From Folioceros fuciformis (Eukaryota), in assembly GCA_049999805.1 (NCBI GenBank), contig JBNGIO010006345.1, positions 62,001 through 82,092 on the forward strand: a stretch of 20,092 bases of DNA. Reading direction: 5' to 3'. A program made the translations under genes and the position numbers. This document shows, piece after piece, positions 1 through 20,092 of this stretch (within the stretch, counting starts at the first letter, position 1; each line of letters begins with the position of its first letter). The notes below the pieces were generated by a model that saw nothing but the letters and a program-made list of their open reading frames with translations, had not been told where the DNA came from and searched no databases.

Positions 1-321
1 ATGCCTGCACTGCCTGATGCTGCCATCGTATGGCATACTCTGCTCGGTGCTTGTCAAAACTGGAGCAATGTGGAGATCGGACGGTTTGCTTTCGACCAAG
101 CACTGAAGCTACAAGAGAAGGACGCTGCAGCACACGTGTTGATGTCCAATATCTACACAGGCGCTGAGATGTGGGAGGAGGCACAGGAGTTGCAGGCAAG
201 GAGAATAAGCATCGGGGCATGGAAGCAGCCGGGCCAGAGCTGGTGGACAGACACGGACGGCGTGGTGCATAAGTTTCTGGTCGGGGACAAGATGATCCCC
301 CGTGTCTTCAAGCAAGGGTGA
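1..321 (+). CDS. 3' end (end of S2, E1, E2, PG box) of a PLS-class PPR protein; partial, begins upstream of the window; inverted duplicate of 5967-6287
   Basis: Translation shows E1 (VWHTLLGACQNWSNVEIG), E2 (AAAHVLMSNIY) and KQPGQSWWTD. It differs from the C-terminus of the 1047-aa ORF by only two visible substitutions (ARR/AKR, HKF/HRF). The ATG at position 1 is an internal Met. Confidence 0.93.
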   Translation: MPALPDAAIVWHTLLGACQNWSNVEIGRFAFDQALKLQEKDAAAHVLMSNIYTGAEMWEEAQELQARRISIGAWKQPGQSWWTDTDGVVHKFLVGDKMIPRVFKQG

Positions 322-410
322 AGCAGGTCGGGGCACTGGTCAGGGAAGAAATCAGACTCACTGATCTCCAGATGACGAACTGCAAGCAGGAACCCTGTGG
401 AGCCTCGCCA

Positions 411-444
411 CATGCCTGAACACGGCTAGCCGTGCTCAGGCATG
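411..444. repeat. 34-bp near-perfect palindrome with no loop
   Basis: catgcctgaacacggct|agccgtgctcaggcatg, one mismatch (420/435). The mirrored copy is at 5844-5877. Confidence 0.9.
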
Positions 445-1237
445 CAAGAGAGGAACAAGTTTGTAGCACCGTCTTCTGGTGCAGGAGAGCTAACTGCAGC
501 CATATGTTTGCACCGAGCTTAAATGTTGCAGGCGGAGCTCCTGCCAAACATGTTCCACCAAAGCTAGTTATGCTGCAGAATGAAAAGCAATGAACTGTTT
601 ATCTTCACAAGTAAGACAGGCATGCAAGACCTTAGTCAGCTTCGAGGACGATATTGATCAGTGTCATACTTACTGTTGGCGGGAATGAGTATCAAAGGGC
701 AGTTAGGGACAGTTGTATGAATCGAGTAAGGAGGCTATTGTCCTTGTTTTGTAAATATGTAGATCGTGTCTTCTCGTCGAGTTCGGAACCTGAGAAATTT
801 AGTTGGGCGCATGATTTGGAGAAGGGCTAGGGCTACATTTGCGATTGGATAGGAGCTCTGGAATGTTTGCGGAAGTTGCTTGATATGTGTTCTTGATTGC
901 AGTTCGAGCTCCCCTGCGATCGCCATTTTCAACAAGATGAGATGACGAATGAAGATGCAGGGGATAGTATGGATATATGGGCCAGTGCCCATACAGTACT
1001 ACTCTGGGGAGTGATTGTAGTCAAGATGCATGAGCTGTTGTGGCGTGTAAGTATAGAATTACGTTCACTGCACGACGGAGGTAAGAAGTAATTCCAAGGC
1101 AAAGGCAAAGGCAAATGTGTGCGTGGCGAGCAACAGAGACAAAGAGATGAGAGGACAGGTCCGATGTCAGCTAGTGCTCAATTGATGTGCCCGATGAGGG
1201 ACGCGCGGCAAATGAGTCACGTGCTGAACAAGACAGT

Positions 1238-1253
1238 AATAAATGCCTTTATT
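1238..1253. terminator. Candidate bidirectional polyadenylation signal (AATAAA on + at 1238-1243; AATAAA on - at 1253-1248)
   Basis: aataaa-tgcc-tttatt lies between the convergent PPR (+) and secreted-protein (-) genes and is conserved in the other arm at 5380-5395. Confidence 0.4.
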
Positions 1254-1674
1254 GATTGTGTAGCTGGTCCTCAGCGTTTCAGGTGGGTATTCAGAAGAGT
1301 AATCTAGGAGCACTTTTTGTAGCAGTCCCGAGTATAAGACCTACAGCTGCCCCACTGTGTGTCACACTGAGACCCAGAATTAAGGCCTCCCCCACATATG
1401 CGCCAGCTCACTCTCCGTCGTCTACATCGTCCCCAGCAACTCAATGGCCTGCACATGTATGCATACACGACACAAATTTCAACGGAATTGCAGAAAGAAT
1501 GGAACTCATGGCAGCATACAGTTTGCCATTGTCGGCGAGAGCAGCAACAAAAGAACTCAGGCACGGGCGCCAGTATCCAAACCACCGCGTCACTAGCCCA
1601 AGACACGTCCTTCCTCTTCACTATTTGCACATCGACACTGACGTCCTGAGGAATGTGAAACAGAGTACGCACCA

Positions 1675-1763
1675 ACTCCCACACCGACTCCCACATCGAC
1701 GCCCACATCGACGCTCGCATCGACGTTCACGAGCTCGTCGACGCCCCCTACATCAACATCAAC
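1675..1763. repeat. Degenerate 12-bp tandem repeat (gatgtgggagtc-like on - strand; could encode DVGV repeats)
   Basis: actcccacaccg actcccacatcg acgcccacatcg acgctcgcatcg...; longer and more degenerate than the copy at 4912-4956. Confidence 0.8.
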
Positions 1764-1831
1764 CCCGGGGCCGGATAAGACGGCCGGTAAGCCAGCAGAA
1801 CAGACGTGGAGATCAAGCAAATGGAAGTCAA

Positions 1832-2083
1832 TCACAAAGTATGGCAGATATTCGTGCTTCTCAAGCGACATAGAGACATGGCGGCAGGCACAGCACTGGA
1901 AGGCACAAGGGACTGACCGAGCTTACGGCCTGGTCCGAAAGTTTGGACGCTCGCTGGGATACCGCCACTCGCCACGGCAGGCTGTGTGAAGCAGGAAAAC
2001 AGAAGCAGGGCTGCCAAGAGCAGCACCATCAAACTGCGGAAAGCCCTGGGCCTGGAGGCAGCAGTTGTCCCTGATCCAGCCAT
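1832..2083 (-). CDS. Small secreted protein/peptide precursor, copy A (83 aa if unspliced; may be spliced after GPG/GRKL)
   Basis: N-terminal signal peptide (RSLMVLLLAALLLFSCFTQPAVA-S), a GRKL motif, a TATA box about 100 bp upstream and a downstream AATAAA. The 3' exon structure is uncertain. Confidence 0.6.
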   Translation of the reverse strand: MAGSGTTAASRPRAFRSLMVLLLAALLLFSCFTQPAVASGGIPASVQTFGPGRKLGQSLVPSSAVPAAMSLCRLRSTNICHTL

Positions 2084-2180
2084 CTTCGGACGTGACTCTG
2101 AGAGCTTCGATTGAAGTGCCCGAACGACGCGAACTCGGCTGCGGGGACGAGATGATGTAGTCTCGATTGACCCTGGCCTC

Positions 2181-2188
2181 TATATATA
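2181..2188 (-). promoter_or_regulatory. TATA box of secreted-protein gene copy A
   Basis: cctatatatagagg on the - strand, about 100 nt upstream of the ATG at 2083. An ACGT core (ctacgtgcc) lies just upstream. Confidence 0.6.
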
Positions 2189-3559
2189 GGTCATACCCTG
2201 GCACGTAGCTCGATTGCGATCACGGGTAGGCAGCTGGGCAGCATGGGGCCCGCCCTCAGGTTGTAAAAGTGCTGTGCCACTTTGTGAACGCTGCCGAAGA
2301 GTGGTGGATGTAAAACTCGCCATAGCCGGAAATGCGCGAAAATCTGGAGAATCATTGATGTCGGTGGTGAGCTTTGTTGTCACAGTGTAGCGCCTGTGTC
2401 TATGTGGTTCTCCGTTGCAAATTTGTGTGTACGGTATACCATCCACCTTGGGACCCATGGTCGTAATACGATCCACCTTGGGTACCGATGTTGAATTTGT
2501 GGGCATACTGTCAACTTCCAGCGTCCCACGAGAGGCTGCAAGTACCCTTGGCACAACGGTATGCGGGGCGTAGGAACAAACACCTGCCGTCGATCTATGC
2601 ATGTGCTCTGATTGTACTCAAAAAGGAGACAATCAAGTCAGTGTGCGGACGACTGAGGAAGTGCAATTCCTGCTTTGAAACTTATCCCCTTTCTGACTCG
2701 GATGCCCCTGGTGTTCAATACAGTAGCATCCACAAGGGAGTACTGTACCTGCTTGCTGTAGTTTTCAACTCGTCTACATGCCCTCCTTTTAAGTAGAAGG
2801 AGCTGGATATGTACATATATCAAGCAGTAATAAAATGCAGGCATTTAAAAACCGAGGTTTTCCTGGGACCAAGCTACAGTACATATGCAGGCGAAGCTCC
2901 TGTTGAACATTTTCTACCGAACGCAGAGCAACAGAATCCCGGTTACTGTAGGTAGAGAATACCGGGCCCGCCACTTTGATTTCCAGAAGTTCGGGGATCC
3001 CGTGCCGCTTCCTAATGAACTAGTAAAATGTAACCATCTCCGGAATATGTAAACTCCCTTTCCAGAGCTTCTCAAAAGCACATCCAGGCGCTCATACAGT
3101 TGGCGAAGTCAGAATCACCCAATCACACAAAAAGTTGTGATAACTATGTTCCTATCTTCTCCTTTTGGCAATGCGCGTGCTCGGCATGGCTGAGTAAGTA
3201 TGTACTCGCTTTTATTTCTCTCGCTACTGTCGTTGTACGGCGATAAGTTGCTCTGCCCCTTGCAATATCTTTTAGTACACCAGGCCTCACTCTATTGAGC
3301 AAGACCATCTTTGGATCATGAATTAATGCCGGTGTCGTGGAGGCAATCCACAGACTCCAGGCTACAGCCACAGCCTACAGCCTACAGTTTGGTTCACAAC
3401 CTCCGCTAGCAAAAGGTTGTGAACGAGGAGCATGCTCCTGCTCCTGCGTGTCCTGTGTACTGCACCATTGGGATGCGAGCATAATACACGCGCACACATC
3501 TTCACATCCACAGCGCTGTGCGCAGCAGGACCTGTTATCTCTAAACACCTGTTCCGACA

Positions 3560-3895
3560 ATGCAAGAGAGGAACAAGTATGCAGGACAGCCTTGTGGTGC
3601 AAGAGAGCTAACTATATTCATGTTCATGCACCAAGCTTATATGACGCCGGCGGATCACCTGCCAAAAGCGTTCCACCAAAGCTAGATATGCTGCAGTATC
3701 AATGGCAATGAGCTCCCTCTCTCCAGAAGCAAGAGCGGTACGTGGATTTTACCTTCACGGACCGATATTTCTCAGTCTCGTGGCAGGAGTGAGCATGAAA
3801 GGGCACTGAGAGACGCGAGTATGATACAAATCAAGAGACGTGGTGTAAATGTTTTGTGGGCTAGCCTGAGGACTGAGTTAAGGTTCTGATTGGAC
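3560..3895 (+). repeat. Older, diverged third copy of the PPR 3'-flank sequence (similar to about 443-852); possibly decayed antisense PPR sequence
   Basis: Shared blocks: tgcaagagaggaacaagt, gagagctaact, gttccaccaaagctag.tatgctgcag, gcaatga, aaagggca. The - strand translation has PPR-like scraps (VLHTCSSLALSEQ, GCEPN). Similarity fades after about 3825. Confidence 0.7.
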
Positions 3896-4182
3896 AGTAC
3901 ACGCGGAGCATGCACGCGCACATATCCTCACATTGCTGCTATTGCTGTCCTTGTCGACAACAGTTGACTGCATGCCGCTCTGCATTTCGATCTTGCTGCA
4001 TTTGTGTTGAACGCCGTGTGTTCGTATGTGTGCAGACGCTCAAGGCGGCGTCTCGACCGCCGTCTCATGCATAGAACGACGGCAGGTGTTTGTTCCTACG
4101 CCCCGCATACCGTTGTGCCAAGGGTACTTGCAGCCTCTCGTGGGACGCTGGAAGTTGACAGTATGCCCACAAATTCAACATC

Positions 4183-4236
4183 GGTACCCAAGGTGGATCG
4201 TATTACGACCATGGGTCCCAAGGTGGATGGTATACC
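4183..4236. repeat. Two-unit 30-bp-period direct repeat in the upstream region (mirror at about 2433-2486)
   Basis: cccaaggtggat at 4187-4198 and 4217-4228, each followed by .gtat. Confidence 0.7.
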
Positions 4237-4480
4237 GTACACACAAATTTGCAACGGAGAACCACATAGACACAGGCGCTACACTGTGACAACAAAGCTC
4301 ACCACCGACATCAATGATTCTCCAGATTTTCGCGCATTTCCGGCTATGGCGAGTTTTACATCCACCACTCTTCGGCAGCGTTCACAAAGTGGCACAGCAC
4401 TTTTACAACCTGAGGGCGGGCCCCATGCTGCCCAGCTGCCTACCCGTGATCGCAATCGAGCTACGTGCCAGGGTATGACC

Positions 4481-4488
4481 TATATATA
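4481..4488 (+). promoter_or_regulatory. TATA box of secreted-protein gene copy B
   Basis: cctatatatagagg about 100 nt upstream of the ATG at 4586. Confidence 0.6.
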
Positions 4489-4585
4489 GAGGCCAGGGTC
4501 AATCGAGACTACATCATCTCGTCCCCGCAGCCGAGTTCGCGTCGTTCGGGCACTTCAATCGAAGCTCTCAGAGTCACGTCCGAAG

Positions 4586-4837
4586 ATGGCTGGATCAGGG
4601 ACAACTGCTGCCTCCAGGCCCAGGGCTTTCCGCAGTTTGATGGTGCTGCTCTTGGCAGCCCTGCTTCTGTTTTCCTGCTTCACACAGCCTGCCGTGGCGA
4701 GTGGCGGTATCCCAGCGAGCGTCCAAACTTTCGGACCAGGCCGTAAGCTCGGTCAGTCCCTTGTGCCTTCCAGTGCTGTGCCTGCCGCCATGTCTCTATG
4801 TCGCTTGAGAAGCACGAACATCTGCCACACTTTGTGA
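4586..4837 (+). CDS. Small secreted protein/peptide precursor, copy B (83 aa if unspliced; candidate phase-1 donors c|gtaagc at 4743 and g|gtcagt at 4752)
   Basis: ATG context aagATGG, a hydrophobic signal peptide with an AVA-S cleavage-like site, a GRKL motif, an upstream TATA and AATAAA at 5380. Confidence 0.6.
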   Translation: MAGSGTTAASRPRAFRSLMVLLLAALLLFSCFTQPAVASGGIPASVQTFGPGRKLGQSLVPSSAVPAAMSLCRLRSTNICHTL

Positions 4838-4911
4838 CTGACTTCCATTTGCTTGATCTCCACGTCTGTTGAGCTCGCTTAGTGGCCGGCGTATTATCCG
4901 GCTCCGGGGTT

Positions 4912-4956
4912 GATGTGGAAGCAGATGTGGGAGTCGATGTGGGAGTCGATGTGGGA
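4912..4956. repeat. 12-bp tandem repeat (gatgtgggagtc), about 4 units
   Basis: gatgtggaagca gatgtgggagtc gatgtgggagtc gatgtggga. Confidence 0.85.
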
Positions 4957-5379
4957 CCTGGTGCGTACTCTGTTTCACATTCCTCAGGACGTCAGTGTTG
5001 ATGTGCAAATAATGAAGAGGAAGGACGTGTCTTGGGCTAGTGACGCGGTGGTTTGGATACTGGCGCCCGTGCCCGACTTCTTCTGTTGCTGCTCTCGCCG
5101 ACAATGGCAAACTGTATGCTGCCATGAGTTCCATTCTTTCTGCAATTCCGTTGAAATTTGTGTCGTGTATGCATACATGTGCAGGCCGTTGAGTTGCTGG
5201 GGACGATGTAGACGGCGGAGAGTGAGCTGGCGCATATGTGGGGGAGGCCTTAATTCTGGGTCTCAGTGTGACACACAGTGGGGCAGCTATAGGTCTAATA
5301 CTCGGGACTGCTACAAAAGGTGCTCCTAGATTACTCTTCTGAATAATCACCTGAAACGCTGAGGACCAGCTACACAATC

Positions 5380-5395
5380 AATAAAGGCATTTATT
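5380..5395. terminator. Candidate bidirectional polyadenylation signal, right-arm copy
   Basis: aataaa-ggca-tttatt between the convergent secreted-protein (+) and PPR (-) genes. Confidence 0.4.
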
Positions 5396-5843
5396 ACTGT
5401 CTTGTTCAGCACGTGACTCATACATTCCAGAGCTCCTATCCAATCGCAAATGTAGCCCTAGCCCTTCTCCAAATCATGCCCCCGACTAAATTTCTCAGGT
5501 TCCGAACTCGACGAGAAGGCACGATCTACATATTTACAAAACAAGGACAATAGCCTCCTTACTCGATTCATACAAGTGTCCCTAACTGCCCTTTCATACT
5601 CATTCCCGCCAAGAGTAAGTATGACATTGAACAATATCGTCCTCGAAGCTAACTAAGGTCTTGCATGCCTGTCTTACTTGTGAAGATAAAAAGTTCATTA
5701 CCGTTCATTCTGCAGCATAACTAACTTTGGTGGAACATGTCTGGCAGAAGCTCCGCCTGCAACATTTAAGCTCGGTGCAAAAATATGGCTGCAGTTAGCT
5801 CTCCTGCACCAGAAGACGATGCTACAAACTTGTTCCTCTCTTG

Positions 5844-5877
5844 CATGCCTGAGCACGGCTAGCCGTGTTCAGGCATG
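5844..5877. repeat. 34-bp near-perfect palindrome (mirror of 411-444)
   Basis: catgcctgagcacggct|agccgtgttcaggcatg. Confidence 0.9.
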
Positions 5878-5966
5878 TGGCGAGGCTCCTCAGGGTTCCT
5901 GCTTGCAGTTCGTCATCTGGAGATCAGTGAGTCTGATTTCTTCCCTGACCAGTGCCCCGACCTGCT

Positions 5967-8900
5967 TCACCCTTGCTTGAAGACACGGGGGATCATCTTG
6001 TCCCCGACCAGAAACCTATGCACCACGCCGTCCGTGTCTGTCCACCAGCTCTGGCCCGGCTGCTTCCATGCCCCGATGCTTATTCTCTTTGCCTGCAACT
6101 CCTGTGCCTCCTCCCACATCTCAGCGCCTGTGTAGATATTGGACATCAACACGTGTGCTGCAGCGTCCTTCTCTTGTAGCTTCAGTGCTTGGTCGAAAGC
6201 AAACCGTCCGATCTCCACATTGCTCCAGTTTTGACAAGCACCGAGCAGAGTATGCCATACGATGGCAGCATCAGGCAGTGCAGGCATCGTGCTTACCAAA
6301 GTCACGGCCTCATCCAGTCGGCCTGCCCGCCCCAGGAGATCCACCATGCACGCATAGTGCTGCACTGTGGGGCTGATGCCGTGCTGCCTGCTCATGGCCT
6401 CGAAGATCTCTTGCCCCTTGCTCACCTGACCTGTATGACTGCAGACTGTTAGGGCAGCAAGGAAGGTAATCCCGTCTGGCTGTGTACCATCGTCGCGCAT
6501 TCTGGTCACCATTTCAAATACCGCTGCACTGTCACCTTGGTGGCTGTATCCTGCAATCAACGCATTCCAGGTCACAACATCCCGTTCAGCCAAGGCTTCA
6601 AACGCTTGACGTGCGTCAATCATGCTTCCAGACTTCCCGTACATGTTTATCAGACTCCCGGCTACAAAAATATCAGCCTGAAGCCCTTGTTCTACGATCT
6701 GTGCGTGTAGCTCTCTTCCCAGATGCAGAGCGGCCACATTTGCACATGCCTGCAGGAGGCACGCAAATGTCACGGCATTGGGTACAGCAATGCCTTCAGC
6801 TTCCATAGCCGTGTACAGGTGAAGGGCTTCCTCATCCATGCCTTGCTGGGAGAACCCTGCTATCATGGCAGTCCATGTCACCACATCTTTGTGGTCAAGT
6901 CCGTCAAACAGCGTCTGAGCATCGTCCAAGCTGCCACACTTGGCATACATGTTCACCAAACTGTTGGCTACCAATACATCAGATTGGTATCCTTGGTCTC
7001 TGATTTGTGAGTGAAGTCGGGTTCCCATCTCTAAGGCTGGGGTGCCCACACTTGCACAAGCCTGCAGGACACACACAAATGTCACGGAATCAGGAACAGC
7101 TGTGCCTTCTTCTTGCATAGCCGTGTAGATTTGAAGGGCTTCCTGGCCCCTGCCCTGCTGGGAATAACCTGCTATCATGGCATTCCAGGTCACCACATCT
7201 TTCTGAACGAGTGCGCTAAACACGCTCCGAGCATCATCTAGGCTGCCGCACTTTGTATACATGTTGACCAAGCTGTTGGTTACGAACACATCTGCTTGAT
7301 GTCCTCCCTCTTTGATTTCTGCATGAAGCTCCTTTCCCTTCTCCAAAGCAGGGGTGCCTACACTAGCACATGCCTGAAGGAGGCACACAAACGTCACACA
7401 GTCTGGTACAACCATGCCTTCCTCTTGCATAGTATTGTAAAGGCGAAGGGCTTGGTGGCCCATGCCATTCTGGGAGTATCCCGCGATGAGTGCAGTCCAC
7501 GTTACCACATCCTTGTGAGCAAGTCCGTCAAACACACTTCGAGCGTCTTCTAAGCTGCCACATTTGGCATACATGTTAACCAAACTGTTGGCTACATACA
7601 CATCAGTTTGCTGTCCTTCTTGTCTAATTCGTGCATGCAGCTGCTTCCCCTCTTCCAACGCTGGGATTCCCACACTGGCACATGCTTGCAGCAGGCACAC
7701 AAACATCATGGAATTGGACACAACGATGCCTTCATCTTCCATAGCACCGGAAAGACGAAGTGCTTCGTGGCCCATGCCCTGCCGAGAAAGCCCTGCTATC
7801 ATGGTAGTCCATGTCACCACGTCTTTATGGGCAAGCCCCTCAAACACTGTTTGAGCCTCTTTCAGGCTGCCACACTTTGCATACATGTTCACCAAACTGT
7901 TGGCTACAAACACATCAGTTTCATATGCTCGTCCTCTGATTTGTGTGTGAAGCTGCTTCCCCGTCTCCAAAGCTGAGGAGCCCACACTTGCACATGCCTG
8001 CAGGAGGCACACAAACGTCACAGAATCGGGCACGGCGATGCCCTCTTCTCGCATAGCCCTGTAGAGACGAATAGCTTCCTGCCCCATGCCCTGCTGCGCA
8101 TACCCTGCAACCAGAGACGTCCAGGTAACCACGTCCTTCACCACCAGTCCGTCAAACACTCTCCGAGCATCTTCCAAGCTCCCACACTTGGCGTACATGT
8201 CCACCAAGCAATTCCACACGAACAAATCGGGCTCAACCCCACTGGTCAACACATCAGCATGCAGCTCCTGGGCAGCTTTCAAATCCCCTGCCTTGGCACA
8301 AGCCTGAAGAGCTGCCACAAACACATGACCATCTGGCTTCACACTCGACCTGCGCATGCGATGATACAGTTGCACGGCTTGCTTATCTTGCCCGTGCTTA
8401 ACATGTGCAGAAATTATGGATGACCACATGAAAGCATCAGGTTCGGCAACCACGGTGAACACATCCATCGCGTCCTGCAACCTGCCGTGAGAAGCATACA
8501 TCCGCAGGATATGGTTGCACAGGAACGTGTCCGAGTCATACACCCCTTTCACCATGAAAGCATGTACGCGTCGACCCCCAACAAGATCCTTCTGCAACAC
8601 GCATTTCTTCAGGACCGTATAAAAGACAGACCTGGCAACACCACATTCTGCCTGCACCAGAACTCCCAGAGCCTCAACAGCCTCAGCCAGATGGCCTTGC
8701 TGACAAAGACTGTTCACGGTGTCAGCCGTGACAACCCTTTCCAATTCGAGTCCTGCAGGCCTGCCAGCCTCAGCAGCATCCGGCAAGCCGTCCTGGCATT
8801 CACCCTTGAATTGTCGAGACAGGAGACCCTGACTGGAAAATCGTTTTCCATCTCCAGCTGCCTGTCTTGCAAAGCTTTTGCATGTTACAGATCCTTTGAT

Positions 8901-9110
8901 TGCCAGAGCTTGCTTCCATATGGTCAGTCGTTCAGGATCGGGGGCGTTCGCAGAAATAGCCGTGAAGCAGCCATTTTGCTGGGTCCTCCAAGAATTCGCC
9001 CACAACGGGTCTTGTTGCCTTGTGTGCGGCTCAATTGTAGGACTCCACACAGCCATGGCTGTGAGAGAGCCGACGTTTGCTGCCGTGGTGCTCGTGGCAT
9101 CACAGTGCAT
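5967..9110 (-). CDS. PLS-class pentatricopeptide repeat protein (about 24 motifs, P2-L2-S2-E1-E2, WW-type PG box, DYW domain absent); putative organellar RNA-editing specificity factor; intronless
   Basis: 1047-aa ORF with repeated VVTWT.MIAGY (P), TFVCLLQACA (L) and NSLVNMYAKCGSL.DA..VF (S) motifs, then ITFLAALTVCSH, HYACMVDLLGRAGRLDEA, E1/E2 and KQPGQSWWTD. A non-repeat N-terminal extension of about 125 aa may hold a targeting peptide. An alternative start in a stronger context is at about 9056. Confidence 0.96.
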   Translation of the reverse strand: MHCDATSTTAANVGSLTAMAVWSPTIEPHTRQQDPLWANSWRTQQNGCFTAISANAPDPERLTIWKQALAIKGSVTCKSFARQAAGDGKRFSSQGLLSRQFKGECQDGLPDAAEAGRPAGLELERVVTADTVNSLCQQGHLAEAVEALGVLVQAECGVARSVFYTVLKKCVLQKDLVGGRRVHAFMVKGVYDSDTFLCNHILRMYASHGRLQDAMDVFTVVAEPDAFMWSSIISAHVKHGQDKQAVQLYHRMRRSSVKPDGHVFVAALQACAKAGDLKAAQELHADVLTSGVEPDLFVWNCLVDMYAKCGSLEDARRVFDGLVVKDVVTWTSLVAGYAQQGMGQEAIRLYRAMREEGIAVPDSVTFVCLLQACASVGSSALETGKQLHTQIRGRAYETDVFVANSLVNMYAKCGSLKEAQTVFEGLAHKDVVTWTTMIAGLSRQGMGHEALRLSGAMEDEGIVVSNSMMFVCLLQACASVGIPALEEGKQLHARIRQEGQQTDVYVANSLVNMYAKCGSLEDARSVFDGLAHKDVVTWTALIAGYSQNGMGHQALRLYNTMQEEGMVVPDCVTFVCLLQACASVGTPALEKGKELHAEIKEGGHQADVFVTNSLVNMYTKCGSLDDARSVFSALVQKDVVTWNAMIAGYSQQGRGQEALQIYTAMQEEGTAVPDSVTFVCVLQACASVGTPALEMGTRLHSQIRDQGYQSDVLVANSLVNMYAKCGSLDDAQTLFDGLDHKDVVTWTAMIAGFSQQGMDEEALHLYTAMEAEGIAVPNAVTFACLLQACANVAALHLGRELHAQIVEQGLQADIFVAGSLINMYGKSGSMIDARQAFEALAERDVVTWNALIAGYSHQGDSAAVFEMVTRMRDDGTQPDGITFLAALTVCSHTGQVSKGQEIFEAMSRQHGISPTVQHYACMVDLLGRAGRLDEAVTLVSTMPALPDAAIVWHTLLGACQNWSNVEIGRFAFDQALKLQEKDAAAHVLMSNIYTGAEMWEEAQELQAKRISIGAWKQPGQSWWTDTDGVVHRFLVGDKMIPRVFKQG

Positions 9111-9794
9111 TAGGTTGAAATCCAGTGTGATGCTCCTCTTCGATGACCCATCTCCCTGTCATCATCGATACCAGTCCTTGGCGTTTGTGGGTATGACCAC
9201 TTGGAACACCGTGAATCCCACTGGAGATGACGCTCTCTGCGTGCAGATTCCATGAAGTCACGCACGCCCGTATGTCTTGCGCTTCGTGCTGTAGCCACTG
9301 CACAACAATCACGGAGTTGAACGTTACAAGTTGCTGCATTCCTTGATCAGGAGGCACGGGCTAACTGAATTCGGTGATCAGAAGAAACGGGTTGTCTTTG
9401 CAGATAATTTCTTCTGACTGTTGGTCGACATGTCTTATCTGGGAGAGTGATTCCGGGGGCTCGAAGGAACCATATCAAAGCAAGACAAAGAAGCAGCTTT
9501 GCACTGGTGCGTTGACAACACTAGAGCAGATAGGCTCCCCAACGTCCGCTGAAGGTGTTCGAGAGGGCTTTGCTGCCGCTAGTCTGAAAGATGGATCAGC
9601 CTTGGCTTTTGTTGCTCCAGGATTTGCCGGAGGGATTAAATGGGTGCTCCATACTTTGGAGTTCGGAGTTCTCTAACACAACCACTACAAGAAGCATTCA
9701 GCTCAATCAAGCTTTTAACTAATGTATGTGGTTTCAAGTGACACGCGGGTCCCCACTCTGGAAAAGAACGCGATGACGTCGTTGAACTGGAGCT

Positions 9795-10769
9795 TTACGG
9801 GCTGTCCTGAACAATACCCTTGGCCTGCCAAGAGCCGTCGAAGCCGCACTGCCAGAGCTTGACATGACCATCCGCCCCAGATGTTGCAAGAGTCATGCCA
9901 GCCATATCCCAGGCTGCTTCCCAGACCTCGCCATCGTGTTCGCACAGCTGGGCCACCCTCTGAACTGAAAGCTTGCTACCATGCTCCTGCGGGAAGGAGA
10001 GCTGCCAGATAGCCACCGTCGCCCTGCTGGCCACGGCCACAAGGTCGTAAGGCCGGCCCATGTTGGGCGCCCATGACACACATGTAACGGCTTCCGGGGC
10101 TTCGTCTGCTTCCACCAGCTCGGCGATCGGATGCCACCGCTGCTGCACCTCCAGGAACTCCCAAACCTTGGCCGAACAGTAGACGAGATTGTCAGTTTCA
10201 TACCCGACCACAAACACAGGCTGCTGGGCCAGGCCAGACGAAGGCCGCCACGAAATGGACGACGCGGAGCAGTCGAGCTTATCCAGCCCCTCCGTGGCGC
10301 TGCACACGTTGGGGAAATCCGCCTGCAGCTCCCACTGCTTCAGGCACAGCGCATCCGTGGTCTCGTACACCTTGACGTGGCCGTCCACTGCGGCTGCAAC
10401 CAGCTTGAGCCCCGACAGGCAATTGCCGAATTGCAAATCCAGAACCGCCGGAAACCCCTCCTGCACGCAAGCGCATGGTGTCCACACGTCCCCATCGTCT
10501 CCGTCGCTGGTTTCCTCCCACACACGGATGCTGCCGGCTGTGCAGCAAGAGGCTACCACGTTCCCGCAAGTGGGAGGAGCCCACACCACCTTCACAATGC
10601 TGGCTTCATGCGCCTGCCATTCTCCGCTGCACACTAATCCGCTGTGCTCTTGATCCCAAACCTGAATCCTGCCGCTGTCAAATGCCACAGCCAGCCTCTC
10701 GCCGCCCTGATTCCACGACGCCTGCACAGCACCCGGCGGCAACTTGGCTGCCACGCTGTTTCCCGCCAT
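9795..10769 (-). CDS. SEH1: Nucleoporin SEH1 (WD40 repeat protein), single exon
   Basis: 324-aa WD40 ORF with SEH1 hallmarks: AH..SIVKVVWAPP..G..VAS, WELQADF, AKVWEF.E..QRW, VSWAPNMGRPYDLVAVA, HDGEVW...WDMAGMTLATSG.DG.VKLW. Confidence 0.93.
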   Translation of the reverse strand: MAGNSVAAKLPPGAVQASWNQGGERLAVAFDSGRIQVWDQEHSGLVCSGEWQAHEASIVKVVWAPPTCGNVVASCCTAGSIRVWEETSDGDDGDVWTPCACVQEGFPAVLDLQFGNCLSGLKLVAAAVDGHVKVYETTDALCLKQWELQADFPNVCSATEGLDKLDCSASSISWRPSSGLAQQPVFVVGYETDNLVYCSAKVWEFLEVQQRWHPIAELVEADEAPEAVTCVSWAPNMGRPYDLVAVASRATVAIWQLSFPQEHGSKLSVQRVAQLCEHDGEVWEAAWDMAGMTLATSGADGHVKLWQCGFDGSWQAKGIVQDSP

Positions 10770-16824: not shown

Positions 16825-18856
16825 CTACGAGCACAGGCCACAGAAAATGGTGCCAGGAAATTTACCCGTTCGCCTAATGCGATCGGCTCGCTCGTGGGTT
16901 CTAGCTGCCTGCTCAGCGCGACGGGCCTCCGCCGACGCTCGCATATCTTGTGCCTGCCGACGTGCTGCTGCAAGCTTGTACATGAGCTTCTCATTAGCGT
17001 GTGACCGCACCCTCTCGATCTTCACCTGCACCATCCAAGTAATCAGACCGCAAACCAGAAAGCTCGCACTTTCTATGCAAGTGATTCGACCACGAGGGCT
17101 GCACACCTCAATCCTTCTTAGTTCAGCCTCTGCCTTGGCCTTCTGATGATTTTCCCAAGCCAGTATCCTGGCCTCCTCACGCGTGTACCTGCCCGCAGAC
17201 GTACACATCAGCATGGATAAAGGGGGGTCTCGAGGACAAGGCGACCCTCACGAAAAATGAGACGTGATGGATTTGTAATGCGCAGCCATACCTTGCCAAG
17301 TATTTTGATCGTTCCGCCTCTTCCCACACCGCTGCACGAGACTCGAGTATGTCCTTCTTCACCTCCTCGAGGCTATGCAGTGTCATCGTCTTGGTACCTT
17401 GATTTTCTTCAGACTCCTTGGTTGCCCAAGCAGCGACATTCGCCTTGCCAAGCTGTGCTCCCAACGCCAAAATCTCCTGCCTTGTCTTCACTTGTTTGTC
17501 TGATAGGTCATTGACTTTGGTTTCAGTCTCTGCAATGGCCTGGCCGGCCAAAGAACCTTGAGCTCCGGTTGTTGATCTCGCCGCATGCCTCTTGGGCGTC
17601 GTCGGACGGGACGATGAGGGGCTGCCTAGAGTAGGCGTAGATGCGGCCAGAGGCGTCGCCGTCTTGCTGGCTATGGGAGTCATTTCTGTTCCCATGTCCC
17701 TCATGCAAACAGAGCGGACGGTCACCGTGGACGAATCATACCCACAGTTTTCTGCTTGAACATCGACTGCCACAACACAAAGACGATAAACAGACACACA
17801 TCATTTTGCTGTTCAGAAAGCCTGGTCAAAGAACCAAGAGGTAGTACCTTCTAAAACGTTGTCTGATGTTGGCTTCTCCGTCCTGAGAGTGGGCTTGGAG
17901 GAGTCATCCGAGGACAGGCTTGCTTGTTGTGCCTTACTGACATGGCCCCCCCCTGGCACGTCGTTCAAGGGGTAGCGATCCACTGTCTTGTTCTCTGCCG
18001 CAATCGAGCCTGCTGCGACAGGCACAAAAGAAAATTTGGCTCCACCATCTCCTTGGCTCGAGCTGTACCTAGTATCCACCTTCTTGGTTCGCTCGAAGGA
18101 GGGGCGTGGCGGTTGGTCACTCGACTGCCCAGAATCCTCTCCTGTAGTGGTGAGGTCATCCCCGGAAGACTGGGCATCACTGCTGGCACTGGTCACAGAA
18201 TGGGAGGCACTAGACAAGGGAGCCAGCTTTTGGCCAACGCCAGCACCACCCTGCCGACCCACATGGCTCCCAAACGTCGGCCTCTTCTGCACAGGCGCCG
18301 GATGCTGCCCTACGATGAGATGACCCTGTAGAGGCCCGCTCTTCGCCTTAGGCCTGGAAGGGGTGTCCGCAGCTGATAAGTTCACGAGCCACGGCTCGGC
18401 GTCATCCCACTTAGACGGAGTCGGCTTGGAGAGCGGGCCTAGCAATGCCGACCGGTGCATCCCTCTGCTCTTCAACTCCAGGCTCGCCACACTGCCAGTG
18501 TCATAGTTGCTCTCGCAGTCGAGGGCATCGGAATCAGGCCCCCGTATCAAATGAGTCGCGTTGAAGCTGAAGGCACCGGGCGCACCTGTCAACACACTAC
18601 CACTCTGGAAATTCAGCCGCACGTTGCCTCCTGCCTTCAGCTTGTTCAAACCACTCCCATCCTTGACCCCCACGGGGCCCCGAACACTCGGCATCACGTC
18701 CTGCTCATCCTCTCCAACAAGCTGGGGCCCGGACCCGGTTCTCTGCAACGTACCTGAAGTACCTGCCTTCCTCAACACCGCTTTATCTTTGAAGCCCTTC
18801 CCCCGCTGGTCCTCCAACACATCAGCCACGCCTTTCTCGGAAGAATCGACCCCCAT
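16825..18856 (-). CDS. Remorin family protein with long disordered N-terminus (group-6-like); exons approx. 18856-17848, 17766-17292, 17188-17107, 17025-16825; start codon uncertain
   Basis: PSKWDDAE.WL, RSVCMRDMGTEMTPIAS, KTRQEILALG.QLGK.N.AAWA, and the Remorin_C coiled coil (RAAVWEEAE..KY.ARY.REE..I.AWENHQKAKAEAE.R.IEVKIER). Ends in a Cys-containing anchor FCGLCS. Introns are GT-AG and in phase. Confidence 0.92.
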
Positions 18857-20092
18857 TGTCCAAGACGCTGATGGCTTAACCGCCGATGCAAACGCCACAA
18901 CCTAAAGCGCCTCCATCCACCTAGATGGAAACAACGCTCACATATCCAGAGACTCCTCCCCTGCAGGTCACTACCTGGATAAAACACTCACAGTCACGGC
19001 CTCCCTCGCTCCTCCACAAACCTTCCATCTCCGCACGAAAAGACTTGCTGTCGTCACACACCTCTCGCCGCCTCGAGATTCGTGCCCCTCACGTGTGACT
19101 CCCATACCTTCCTTCCCCTGGCCTCTAAGACGCTGCAACGAGCCTGACTTCCCGACTCCCAAGACTCTCACCACCACCACTCCTCCCTCTTTCCTCTTTC
19201 CTCCTCCCTCCGCATCAAATCTCCCCTCAACAAAAGCTCCGCAACCGCGTCCTCCACTGCTCCTCCTTCCAGAAACCAGTTCAAACGCTTTCCAGAACGC
19301 TTTCCAACTCGCAATGCAAGGCAGCTTCGAATTTAAACCACGCCGCAACCTTGGGCAAATCAGGCCTAAATCAAGACGAGCTCCCCCGGGAGCCTCAGCA
19401 GGTCAACAACTGCACCAAACACCTCCCGAAGAAGCGCTCTGCGGCCGTCTGCCCTACGCCCGGGCCTCCCATACCTTCCGCCTCCACTTCCCGCACAATT
19501 GAGAGCCACGCAATGCAGGAAGCTCCAGAATTGCTCAGGTCGGCCCGATCAAGAAGCAGCAAGGGTGCAACGCCTTTCCCGCCCCAAGAACGTGCACAAG
19601 GCCAGGCAGCAAGATGCAGATGCAGATACAGCGGAAGGACTCCAACGCAAGCCACAAAACAGATCAAAGCAAAGCAGAACCGGGGGCCGGGCGGGGACAG
19701 GGCAGGGCAAGGCAGAGCGGAGGCGAAGGGGCTTGGGAAGGGACGAGGAAAGAAGAAAGCGAGGGGTCGGGTCGTGAGAGGCCGCGAGCTCACGCCCCAC
19801 GAGGAAGCTCGGCCACGAGGAAGGCTGGCGGAGGAAGGAAGACAGTCTGACACCACCGTCGTGGACTGGCAGGCAGTCTGGCCGGCCCGCTCCAGGCCGC
19901 GTGAATCGCGAATCCCAATCCCCGAATCGTGGCTTGAGTCGTGATCCTTGGACTGCCCGACATTTAACCCTCGCGGCATCCTCTGTCTGTCCCTGTTATG
20001 TTGCCGGAGACCGGACCAGGACCCGGTTCCCAGAACTGCTGTCCCATCAGCCGCCGGGAATCTCTCCGTTCCAAACACGATTCTGCTGAGTC

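Follow-up and report, generated by a model that had tools for sequence, protein, structure and literature searches.

PLS-class PPR proteins of the E subgroup are the site-recognition factors of organelle RNA editing that work without a DYW deaminase of their own. Networks of siRNAs directed at PPR genes are known for the P-class PPR genes of angiosperms, and the PPR genes targeted in Arabidopsis belong to the P-class. According to the cited parts of the Arabidopsis studies, an inverted gene copy lying beside its source, with long and near-perfect arms, is the stage expected before a MIRNA gene is shaped (PMC1790633, PMC1820830). Palindromes homogenised by arm-to-arm gene conversion are, in the sections of the literature cited here, established in mammals and reported in willow (10.1101/800185, PMC8600007, PMC7023750).

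We analysed a stretch of 20,092 nucleotides from Folioceros fuciformis (contig JBNGIO010006345.1, positions 62,001 to 82,092), hereafter the window, in which two copies of a gene-bearing segment face each other. The locus is considered to be a genuine, young inverted segmental duplication, i.e., a small palindrome, that lies in the nuclear genome of a non-seed land plant, with later conversion between its arms; we assign this reading a probability of about 0.7. A single small inverted duplication is ordinary in a plant genome, and the locus is of a known kind in this respect.

Like the palindromes of the primate and mouse X and Y and of the willow W, as these are portrayed in the cited parts of the reports, the locus has inverted gene-bearing arms flanking a unique spacer, and identity in part of the arms exceeds the expectation under uniform divergence. 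It is smaller (2.2 kb or more, against >10 kb) and less uniform (97.7% identity, against >99%), and conversion is deduced here from one locus in one genome. Comparison with the Arabidopsis inverted duplications (MIR161, MIR163, and the large ones on chromosome III), within what the cited sections cover, shows that an inverted coding copy, which here includes PPR sequence, adjoins its source in both cases. However, unlike in loci of the MIR161/MIR163 type, the arms here consist mostly of non-coding flank and an orphan ORF, the locus is known from DNA alone, its host is a non-seed plant, and its PPR gene belongs to the PLS/E-class.

Structure of the palindrome

The following unstranded features were delimited by a self-repeat search, blastn, and a global alignment:

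1..2603: left arm, cut at base 1 by the window edge
2604..4065: spacer of 1462 bp, unique except for two old relics of arm sequence
4066..6287: right arm, whose apparent outer end at 6287 merely mirrors the window edge
1-880/5408-6287: inverted pair 1, 97%
1212-1724/4909-5421: inverted pair 2, 96%
1775-2603/4066-4894: inverted pair 3, 99%
867..1211: 345-bp indel, present in the left arm only (global alignment, blastn)
1670..1747: 12-nt tandem repeat, differing in copy number between the arms; mirror array at 4912-4956

The structure was observed directly. The arms are reverse complements of each other, and the self-repeat search resolved them into three collinear inverted pairs, the inner ends being exactly 1462 nt apart. 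Since blastn between the arms gave E = 0.0 for the two longest blocks, the match is not due to chance. In each arm, the final 106 codons of a PPR gene and their 3' flank converge with an 83-codon ORF, so that the order is PPR> <ORF | spacer | ORF> <PPR, as the preliminary description of this DNA had proposed. Its statement that the window edge cuts the left arm inside the PPR coding sequence was also confirmed: the arm begins at base 1 within that frame, and therefore the visible arm length is a lower bound (at least 2.2 kb).

The differences between the arms were likewise read directly from the global alignment. Over 2219 aligned positions, the arms are 97.7% complementary and differ by 51 substitutions (29 transitions and 22 transversions) and three indels: the 345-bp segment, 39 bp extra in the left arm (1709-1747) within the 12-nt repeat, and 3 additional bp on the right side (4891-4893). 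The preliminary description had held that such differences speak against a simple fold-back; the 51 substitutions uphold the argument, but the indels number three and not the two it counted. The 345-bp segment has no second copy within the window according to blastn. It was also considered as a transposon and rejected, as inspection by eye revealed no target-site duplication and no convincing terminal inverted repeat. A search for known RNA genes gave 0 Rfam matches in 1-6400 at E up to 1 and 0 tRNAs across the window.

Contigs of public sequencing runs were compared with the locus. The letters of both arms are present in contigs of public DNA runs: at place 564, both letters are read in X1 (10.4/18.6) and X2 (15.5/27.1), and at place 1850, both are read in X2 (17.3/24.6). 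Two of the contigs mix left- and right-arm letters, and contigs built from k-mers can switch between near-identical arms; thus, the contigs support the letters of both arms and not the linkage of variants. Contigs over 3331-4095 (X1) and 3379-4095 (X2) begin in the spacer, continue free of mismatches into the right arm, with the arm-specific letter at 4076, and cross the junction by 30 nt only, the rule for junction support being 31. X1 and X2 may represent the assembly's own sample. A contig of X3, a run of another study, agrees with the right copy over 5420-6064 with 0 differences across several arm-distinguishing sites. The matches of the X3 contigs fall within 5420-9300 and the shared PPR tail, and none falls on 311-5270, which has no bearing on the expression of ORF83, of the left 3' flank, or of a read-through transcript: no listed run (6 runs) is recorded as RNA, and X3 is only guessed to be RNA. 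The bin 2481-2790, which includes the junction of the left arm with the spacer, has no contig cover in 4 runs and is informative neither way. That the two arms are adjacent and face each other is taken from the assembly.

An assembly artefact, in which two haplotypes or unlinked paralogous copies of the PPR gene and ORF83 were joined head-to-head and no single molecule carries the palindrome, is unlikely. It would be compatible with the crossing of a single junction, by 30 nt only, in the public contigs, and with a variant of the spacer part 2848-3196 carried by X1 and X2 (9 other letters and 5 gap letters in one contig), which indicates more than one haplotype or copy in that sample. However, a unique spacer of 1462 bp, 51 substitutions and a 345-bp indel are unlike a missed-adapter or fold-back chimera, the contig running from the spacer into the right arm bears the right-arm letter at 4076, and old relics of the same flank within the spacer fit a real history of local rearrangement.

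Gene content of the arms

The genes and signals in the arms are as follows:

5967..9110, minus strand: right PPR ORF, complete, 1047 aa, PLS-class with an E motif, ending inside E2, no DYW domain
1..321, plus strand: left PPR copy, last 106 codons and stop, the rest beyond the window edge
1832..2083, minus strand: ORF83, left copy, 83 codons, orphan, hydrophobic N-terminal core
4586..4837, plus strand: ORF83, right copy, protein identical to the left copy, DNA with 2 synonymous differences
2181..2188, minus strand: putative TATA box TATATATA, about 100-105 nt upstream of the ORF83 ATG; mirror box (4481-4488) 105 nt ahead of the ATG at 4586
1304..1645, minus strand: Cys-rich open frame, left copy, possible second exon of an ORF83 gene, stop ~50 nt before the minus-strand AATAAA
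4988..5329, plus strand: Cys-rich frame, right copy; codons differing from the left copy: 5 synonymously and 5 non-synonymously, including Cys to Tyr
1238..1253, both strands: AATAAA on each strand, 10 nt apart; mirror at 5380-5395

The right PPR ORF encodes a PLS-class PPR protein of the E subgroup and not of the DYW subgroup. Pfam matched it to PPR_2 (E = 2.3e-112), PPR (E = 1e-94), and PPR_1 (E = 8.6e-73), and placed the E motif PF20431 at residues 962-1022 with 48.4 bits against a cut-off of 27.3. Five P-L-S triplet units of 312 nt (104 aa) lie at 6736-8283. The protein has the tandem PPR motifs of E-subgroup members, P-L-S triplets of 104 aa, and an E motif that exceeds the Pfam cut-off. 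It differs from them in that its nearest proteins are only 44-54% identical and its E2 is shortened, and a role in organelle RNA editing is putative. No match to the DYW cytidine-deaminase domain (PF14432) was obtained with Pfam on the 1047-aa ORF.

The left copy (1-321, plus strand) aligns to residues 942-1047 of the right ORF at 98%, and the tails differ at 2 codons, both non-synonymously (R/K and K/R). Neither arm has a DYW-like frame downstream of the PPR stop. In tblastn, with the C-terminal 260 aa of 10 DYW-type relatives as queries, the alignment reached query residue ~144-154, beyond which nothing was better than E = 0.9, so homology to these relatives does not go past the beginning of E2. 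The two copies terminate at one and the same position within E2, with no DYW remnant after it, and therefore the truncation predates the duplication. The locus had been presented as an instance of PPR-family expansion; this holds only in part: the copying took in the neighbouring unit and at least 321 nt at the 3' end of the PPR frame, and the left copy is visible as a 3' tail only. The PPR family is large in this genome, as judged from contigs of public runs matching 7751-8060, whose depths sum to 3801-5679, a summed contig depth that is no copy number.

ORF83 is a putative gene, which may be TATA-driven and whose product has a signal-peptide-like start. At its N-terminus, basic residues precede a hydrophobic core (residues 14-34), with a small-residue motif behind it; the core is defined by hydropathy only (Kyte-Doolittle means over 11 residues of up to 3.3, for segments starting at residues 14-24). 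With E up to 1 allowed, Pfam returned 0 families for ORF83 as well as for either copy of the Cys-rich frame. For the same products, a word-index search produced 20 candidates of which 0 were scored, HMMER against 1.84 billion representatives yielded 1 match, which is spurious (a translated tandem repeat), one atlas search gave no usable match, and another gave a best score of 0.80, which is a lead only. A single-sequence AlphaFold2 model made in the same analysis (mean pLDDT 37.0, pTM 0.25) is too poor for a fold search. The "secreted peptide" of the preliminary description is a reading of ORF83, for which the Pfam, word-index, HMMER, and atlas searches gave no relative.

Judged by the letters, many GT..AG pairs would keep the frame open from ORF83 into the Cys-rich frame, e.g., donor 1918 or 1927 with acceptor 1620. 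None of the splice models joining the two among these many combinations is favoured by the data. In a variant contig of X1 and X2, 3 of the 4 affected ORF83 codons are changed non-synonymously. This, together with the lack of a relative and the Cys to Tyr change in the Cys-rich frame, disfavours ORF83 as a constrained gene. The AATAAA pair at 1238..1253 has the appearance of a terminator zone common to both members of the convergent pair.

Uneven divergence and older relics

Three further tracts are relevant to the history of the locus:

1851..2603, unstranded: inner tract, candidate conversion tract, the arms differing at only 1 of 753 nt; mirror at 4066-4818
3538..3857, plus strand: old relic with about 70% identity to the PPR 3' flank, resembling 413-752 and direct with respect to the left arm
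3931..4038, plus strand: second weak relic, like right-arm 5075-5187 (nhmmer, E = 8.9e-8)

The divergence between the arms is uneven. The inner tract has 1 difference in 753 nt, against 50 in 1466 nt of the outer part (Fisher p = 2.8e-8), and within the outer part the PPR coding tail has 2 in 321, against 48 in 1145 for the non-coding sequence (p = 7e-4). This unevenness suggests later homogenisation between the arms or a second copying event. Gene conversion from arm to arm is most likely the cause of the inner near-identity. The pattern of identity is also compatible with a second, later copying event, which could have produced the inner 753 nt, and consensus polishing that mixed reads of both arms could have done so too. 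The roughly 70%-identical relics in the spacer indicate that the locus had been rearranged before.

Proposed origin and possible fate of the palindrome

We propose that the copied unit was a convergent pair, made up of an E-type PLS-class PPR gene, of which the 3' part and possibly the whole was included, and a putative TATA-driven small gene, the two probably sharing a bidirectional poly(A)-signal zone. Repair of a DNA break or a template switch may have set the second copy head-to-head across the 1.46-kb spacer. The arms would then have diverged by ~3-4% in their non-coding sequence, through a single 345-bp indel, and through slippage in the 12-nt repeat, and the inner 750 bp would later have been re-made almost identical, most likely by arm-to-arm gene conversion. 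If the duplication is real, it offers a dated snapshot of turnover in a very large PPR family, the copying having taken place ~3-4% non-coding divergence ago. It would also record the copying of a whole PPR gene, or of its tail, along with a convergent neighbour, with signs of later homogenisation and of older rearrangements at the same spot. Nothing points to a function of the palindrome as such, and the most fitting view of it is as raw material for gene-family turnover.

Another explanation is the capture of a gene fragment, i.e., the left copy would be a PPR 3' fragment with its flank moved by a transposon-like or foldback element, and the arms would be long terminal inverted repeats. The visibility of the left copy as a 3' tail only, the arrangement of long inverted repeats around a short middle, and the recurrence of relics of the same flank in the spacer are consistent with such an element. 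However, the 8 ORFs scanned across the arms and spacer gave 0 Pfam families and no transposase, no sub-repeated termini are present besides the one 12-nt array, and the right arm continues unbroken into a complete 1047-aa PPR ORF. Capture is accordingly regarded as improbable.

A functional hairpin-RNA locus, in which a transcript over both arms would form a stem of >2 kb and give rise to siRNAs against its own and related PPR mRNAs as a proto-MIRNA, appears very unlikely. Any spanning transcript would pair over the 2219 nt aligned, the inverted repeat does derive from protein-coding sequence (the 321 nt of the PPR frame), and the PPR family is large here, as the contig depth over 7751-8060 indicates. 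The inverted-duplication model itself is established for Arabidopsis in the cited parts of the literature (PMC1790633, PMC1820830). In the window, however, those 321 nt are the only PPR coding sequence common to the arms, the remainder being flank and the orphan ORF. The PPR genes are convergent, and AATAAA occurs on the plus strand at 1238, 2829, and 5380 and on the minus strand at 5390, 3211, and 1248, so that a spanning transcript needs read-through of all three on its strand. The ORF83 promoters face outward, away from the spacer. The fuller version, a working or nascent hairpin-RNA gene in which PPR read-through makes the >2-kb stem, siRNAs damp a large self-similar PLS-class family, and conversion keeps the inner stem perfect, is more improbable still.

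If the hairpin reading were true, small-RNA control by inverted duplication would extend from the P-class genes of angiosperms to editing-type PPR genes in an early-diverging lineage. Under the preferred reading of a young inverted duplication, the locus belongs among the young palindromes that are proposed as starting material of plant hairpin-RNA and MIRNA genes. A species that contains hundreds of near-identical PPR segments would therefore be a promising one in which to look for them.

Structure and integrity of the palindrome

A repeat search of the window returned three collinear inverted blocks, 1-880/5408-6287 (97%), 1212-1724/4909-5421 (96%), and 1775-2603/4066-4894 (99%), and blastn gave E = 0.0 for the two largest, which bore out the inverted repeat at the place claimed by the preliminary description. 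The inner arm ends lie exactly 1462 nt apart, and the arm lengths are minimum values, as the left arm is already under way at window base 1. Aligned globally, the left arm (1-2603) and the reverse-complemented right arm (4066-6287) shared 2219 positions, with 51 substitutions (29 transitions and 22 transversions). The earlier account of the arms was exact except that it counted two indels; the alignment contained three:

867-1211, 345 bp present only in the left arm
1709-1747, 12-nt tandem repeat, 39 bp longer in the left arm
4891-4893, 3 bp extra in the right arm

The locus is a genuine, young, and ordinary inverted segmental duplication of a convergent pair, a PPR gene and an orphan ORF of 83 codons (ORF83):

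5967-9110, minus strand, complete PPR ORF of 1047 aa, into which the right arm continues
1832-2083, minus strand, left copy of ORF83, convergent to the PPR gene
4586-4837, plus strand, right copy of ORF83, convergent to the PPR gene

As proposed previously, a simple read or assembly fold-back does not account for it: fold-back and missed-adapter chimeras do not give differences of this number and kind, a 345-bp indel, or a unique spacer of 1.46 kb. An assembly artefact is unlikely, and contigs of the public DNA runs X1 (3331-4095) and X2 (3379-4095), which derive from one sample, possibly that of the assembly itself, cross the junction of spacer and right arm with every letter matching, the arm-specific one at 4076 included. 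However, these contigs enter the arm by only 30 nt, 1 nt below the bridging threshold, and the placement of both arms on one molecule rests on the assembly. In support of a real duplication, both letters were read in X1/X2 contigs at the arm-distinguishing places 564 and 1850, and the letter of the other arm at 1418, 1445, and 5819, but k-mer contigs can jump between near-identical arms, and left and right letters are mixed within two of the aligned contigs (records 1 and 4). Further support comes from X3, a run of a different study, in which 5420-6064 was matched with no differences. This contig, over the right PPR 3′ flank, stops exactly at 5420, the breakpoint of the 345-bp indel, 25 nt short of the minus-strand AATAAA (5390-5395); it may end there by coincidence or because of a graph branch or the end of a transcript.

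The spacer is, to judge from its matches, not wholly foreign. The segment 3538/3560-3857 shares ~70% identity with the PPR 3′ flank (413/442-752) in direct orientation relative to the left arm, and 3931-4038 weakly matches 5075-5187 (nhmmer E = 8.9e-8). These old relics of arm sequence indicate that the locus had been rearranged already before the present palindrome arose. X1 and X2 also carry a variant of spacer 2848-3196, with nine other letters and five gap letters in one 354-nt contig, and part of the depth shows more variants at 2986-3086, a sign that the sample contains a second haplotype or copy.

Uneven divergence between the arms

The arms differ at 1 of 753 sites in the inner tract (1851-2603) and at 50 of 1466 sites (3.4%) outside it (Fisher p = 2.8e-8). 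Two of 321 sites differ in the PPR coding tail, against 48 of 1145 (4.2%) in the non-coding outer part (p = 7e-4). Assuming ~7e-9 mutations per site per generation, a plant-like rate that may not be that of this species, we infer that 4% divergence would correspond to a few million generations. The near-identical inner tract covers most of ORF83 and also 520 bp upstream of it; thus, selection on ORF83 alone explains it poorly. Gene conversion between the arms is the simplest explanation; such conversion is known from the palindromes of mammalian sex chromosomes and has been reported on a sex chromosome of willow (10.1101/800185, PMC8600007, PMC7023750). A later, second copying event or consensus polishing with the arms mixed is possible; the trace of homogenisation is interesting, but unproven.

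ORF83 and the proposed hairpin transcript

A TATATATA box is located 105 nt upstream of the ORF83 ATG, and the N-terminus passes from basic residues through a strongly hydrophobic core to a small-residue motif. The following features are located downstream:

1304-1645, minus strand, cysteine-rich open frame in the orientation of ORF83, candidate second exon
1238/1248 (1238-1253), mirrored at 5380/5390 (5380-5395), AATAAA on both strands, 10 nt apart

Many GT..AG combinations could connect ORF83 with the cysteine-rich frame, all being candidate joins predicted from sequence alone. Neither frame matched a Pfam family. Searches for relatives of the small ORF gave no scored candidate in a word index (0 of 20), only a translated tandem repeat, not a relative, with HMMER against 1.84 billion representatives, and nothing usable, or a top score of 0.80, in the atlas; a single-sequence structure model was useless (pLDDT 37). 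Between the arms, ORF83 has two synonymous and no non-synonymous codon differences, and the cysteine-rich frame five of each, including one Cys to Tyr; of the four ORF83 codons altered in an X1/X2 variant contig, three encode a different amino acid. Thus, the "secreted-peptide cassette" of the preliminary description, although it has a plausible promoter and a signal-like start, shows no conservation and is only a hypothesis.

The stop of the cysteine-rich frame is ~50 nt upstream of an AATAAA. The AATAAA pair looks like a terminator zone common to the convergent genes, and the palindromic AATAAA ... TTTATT arrangement is a candidate poly(A) signal for both. Overlapping 3′ ends there would be a second dsRNA source, more local than the whole palindrome. 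A transcript across both arms, folding into a hairpin and yielding siRNAs, would be certain to pair (97.7% over 2219 nt), and inverted duplication is an established origin of plant hairpin RNAs and MIRNA genes, with PPR mRNAs among the targets of miR161 and TAS2 siRNAs (PMC1790633, PMC1820830). However, the anatomy does not favour the hairpin/siRNA reading here, which is improbable: the PPR genes are convergent, three AATAAA signals per strand lie between them, the putative ORF83 promoters are directed outward, and the visible part of the arms includes no more than 321 nt of PPR coding sequence.

The PPR gene and its neighbours

The 1047-aa ORF matched PPR families in Pfam (PPR_2, E = 2.3e-112, and others) and an E motif (48.4 bits, cut-off 27.3), but no DYW deaminase domain. 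Its reading frame ends within E2; no DYW-like sequence was found in three frames downstream of the stop in either arm, and when the last 260 aa of ten DYW-type relatives were aligned by tblastn, the matches ended at about their residues 144-154. The E motif, the E2 stop, and the lack of a downstream DYW sequence identify the predicted protein as PLS-class, E-type, the class supplying the site-recognition factors of organellar RNA editing; it would not perform deamination on its own. In the left arm, the PPR frame is present with its final 106 codons, 98% identical to residues 942-1047 of the right copy, and both copies have the same stop; therefore, the truncation predates the duplication.

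The neighbouring genes are as follows:

9795-10769, minus strand, intron-free WD40 gene of the SEH1 nucleoporin type, uninterrupted 324 codons
13104-13358, minus strand, exon matching RNA polymerase III subunit Rpc31 (PF11705, E = 1.7e-8)
16825-17214, minus strand, exon matching the Remorin C-terminal region (PF03763, E = 4.9e-24)

Serine-rich ORFs upstream of the remorin exon (17177-18901) had no Pfam match. The closest PPR relatives (44-54% identical) belong to a lycophyte, ferns, Sphagnum, a leafy liverwort, and conifers; the closest sequences to the SEH1 protein are 59% identical, followed by the mosses Physcomitrium and Ceratodon (49-50%). Together with the neighbouring genes, these relatives indicate that the window comes from the nuclear genome of a non-seed land plant.

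Within the PPR gene, 6736-8283 consists of five consecutive 312-nt (104-aa) P-L-S triplet units, 66-79% identical in DNA and 55-70% in protein. The units are unusually alike for motifs each meant to read another base, which points to concerted evolution or to a recent expansion of the repeats inside the gene. Contigs of three public runs heap on these repeats (6511-8680), with dozens of "joints" between units and a summed depth of 3801-5679 on 7751-8060 versus about 9-12 on the flank; thus, the genome contains very many PPR paralogs sharing stretches of at least 95% identity.
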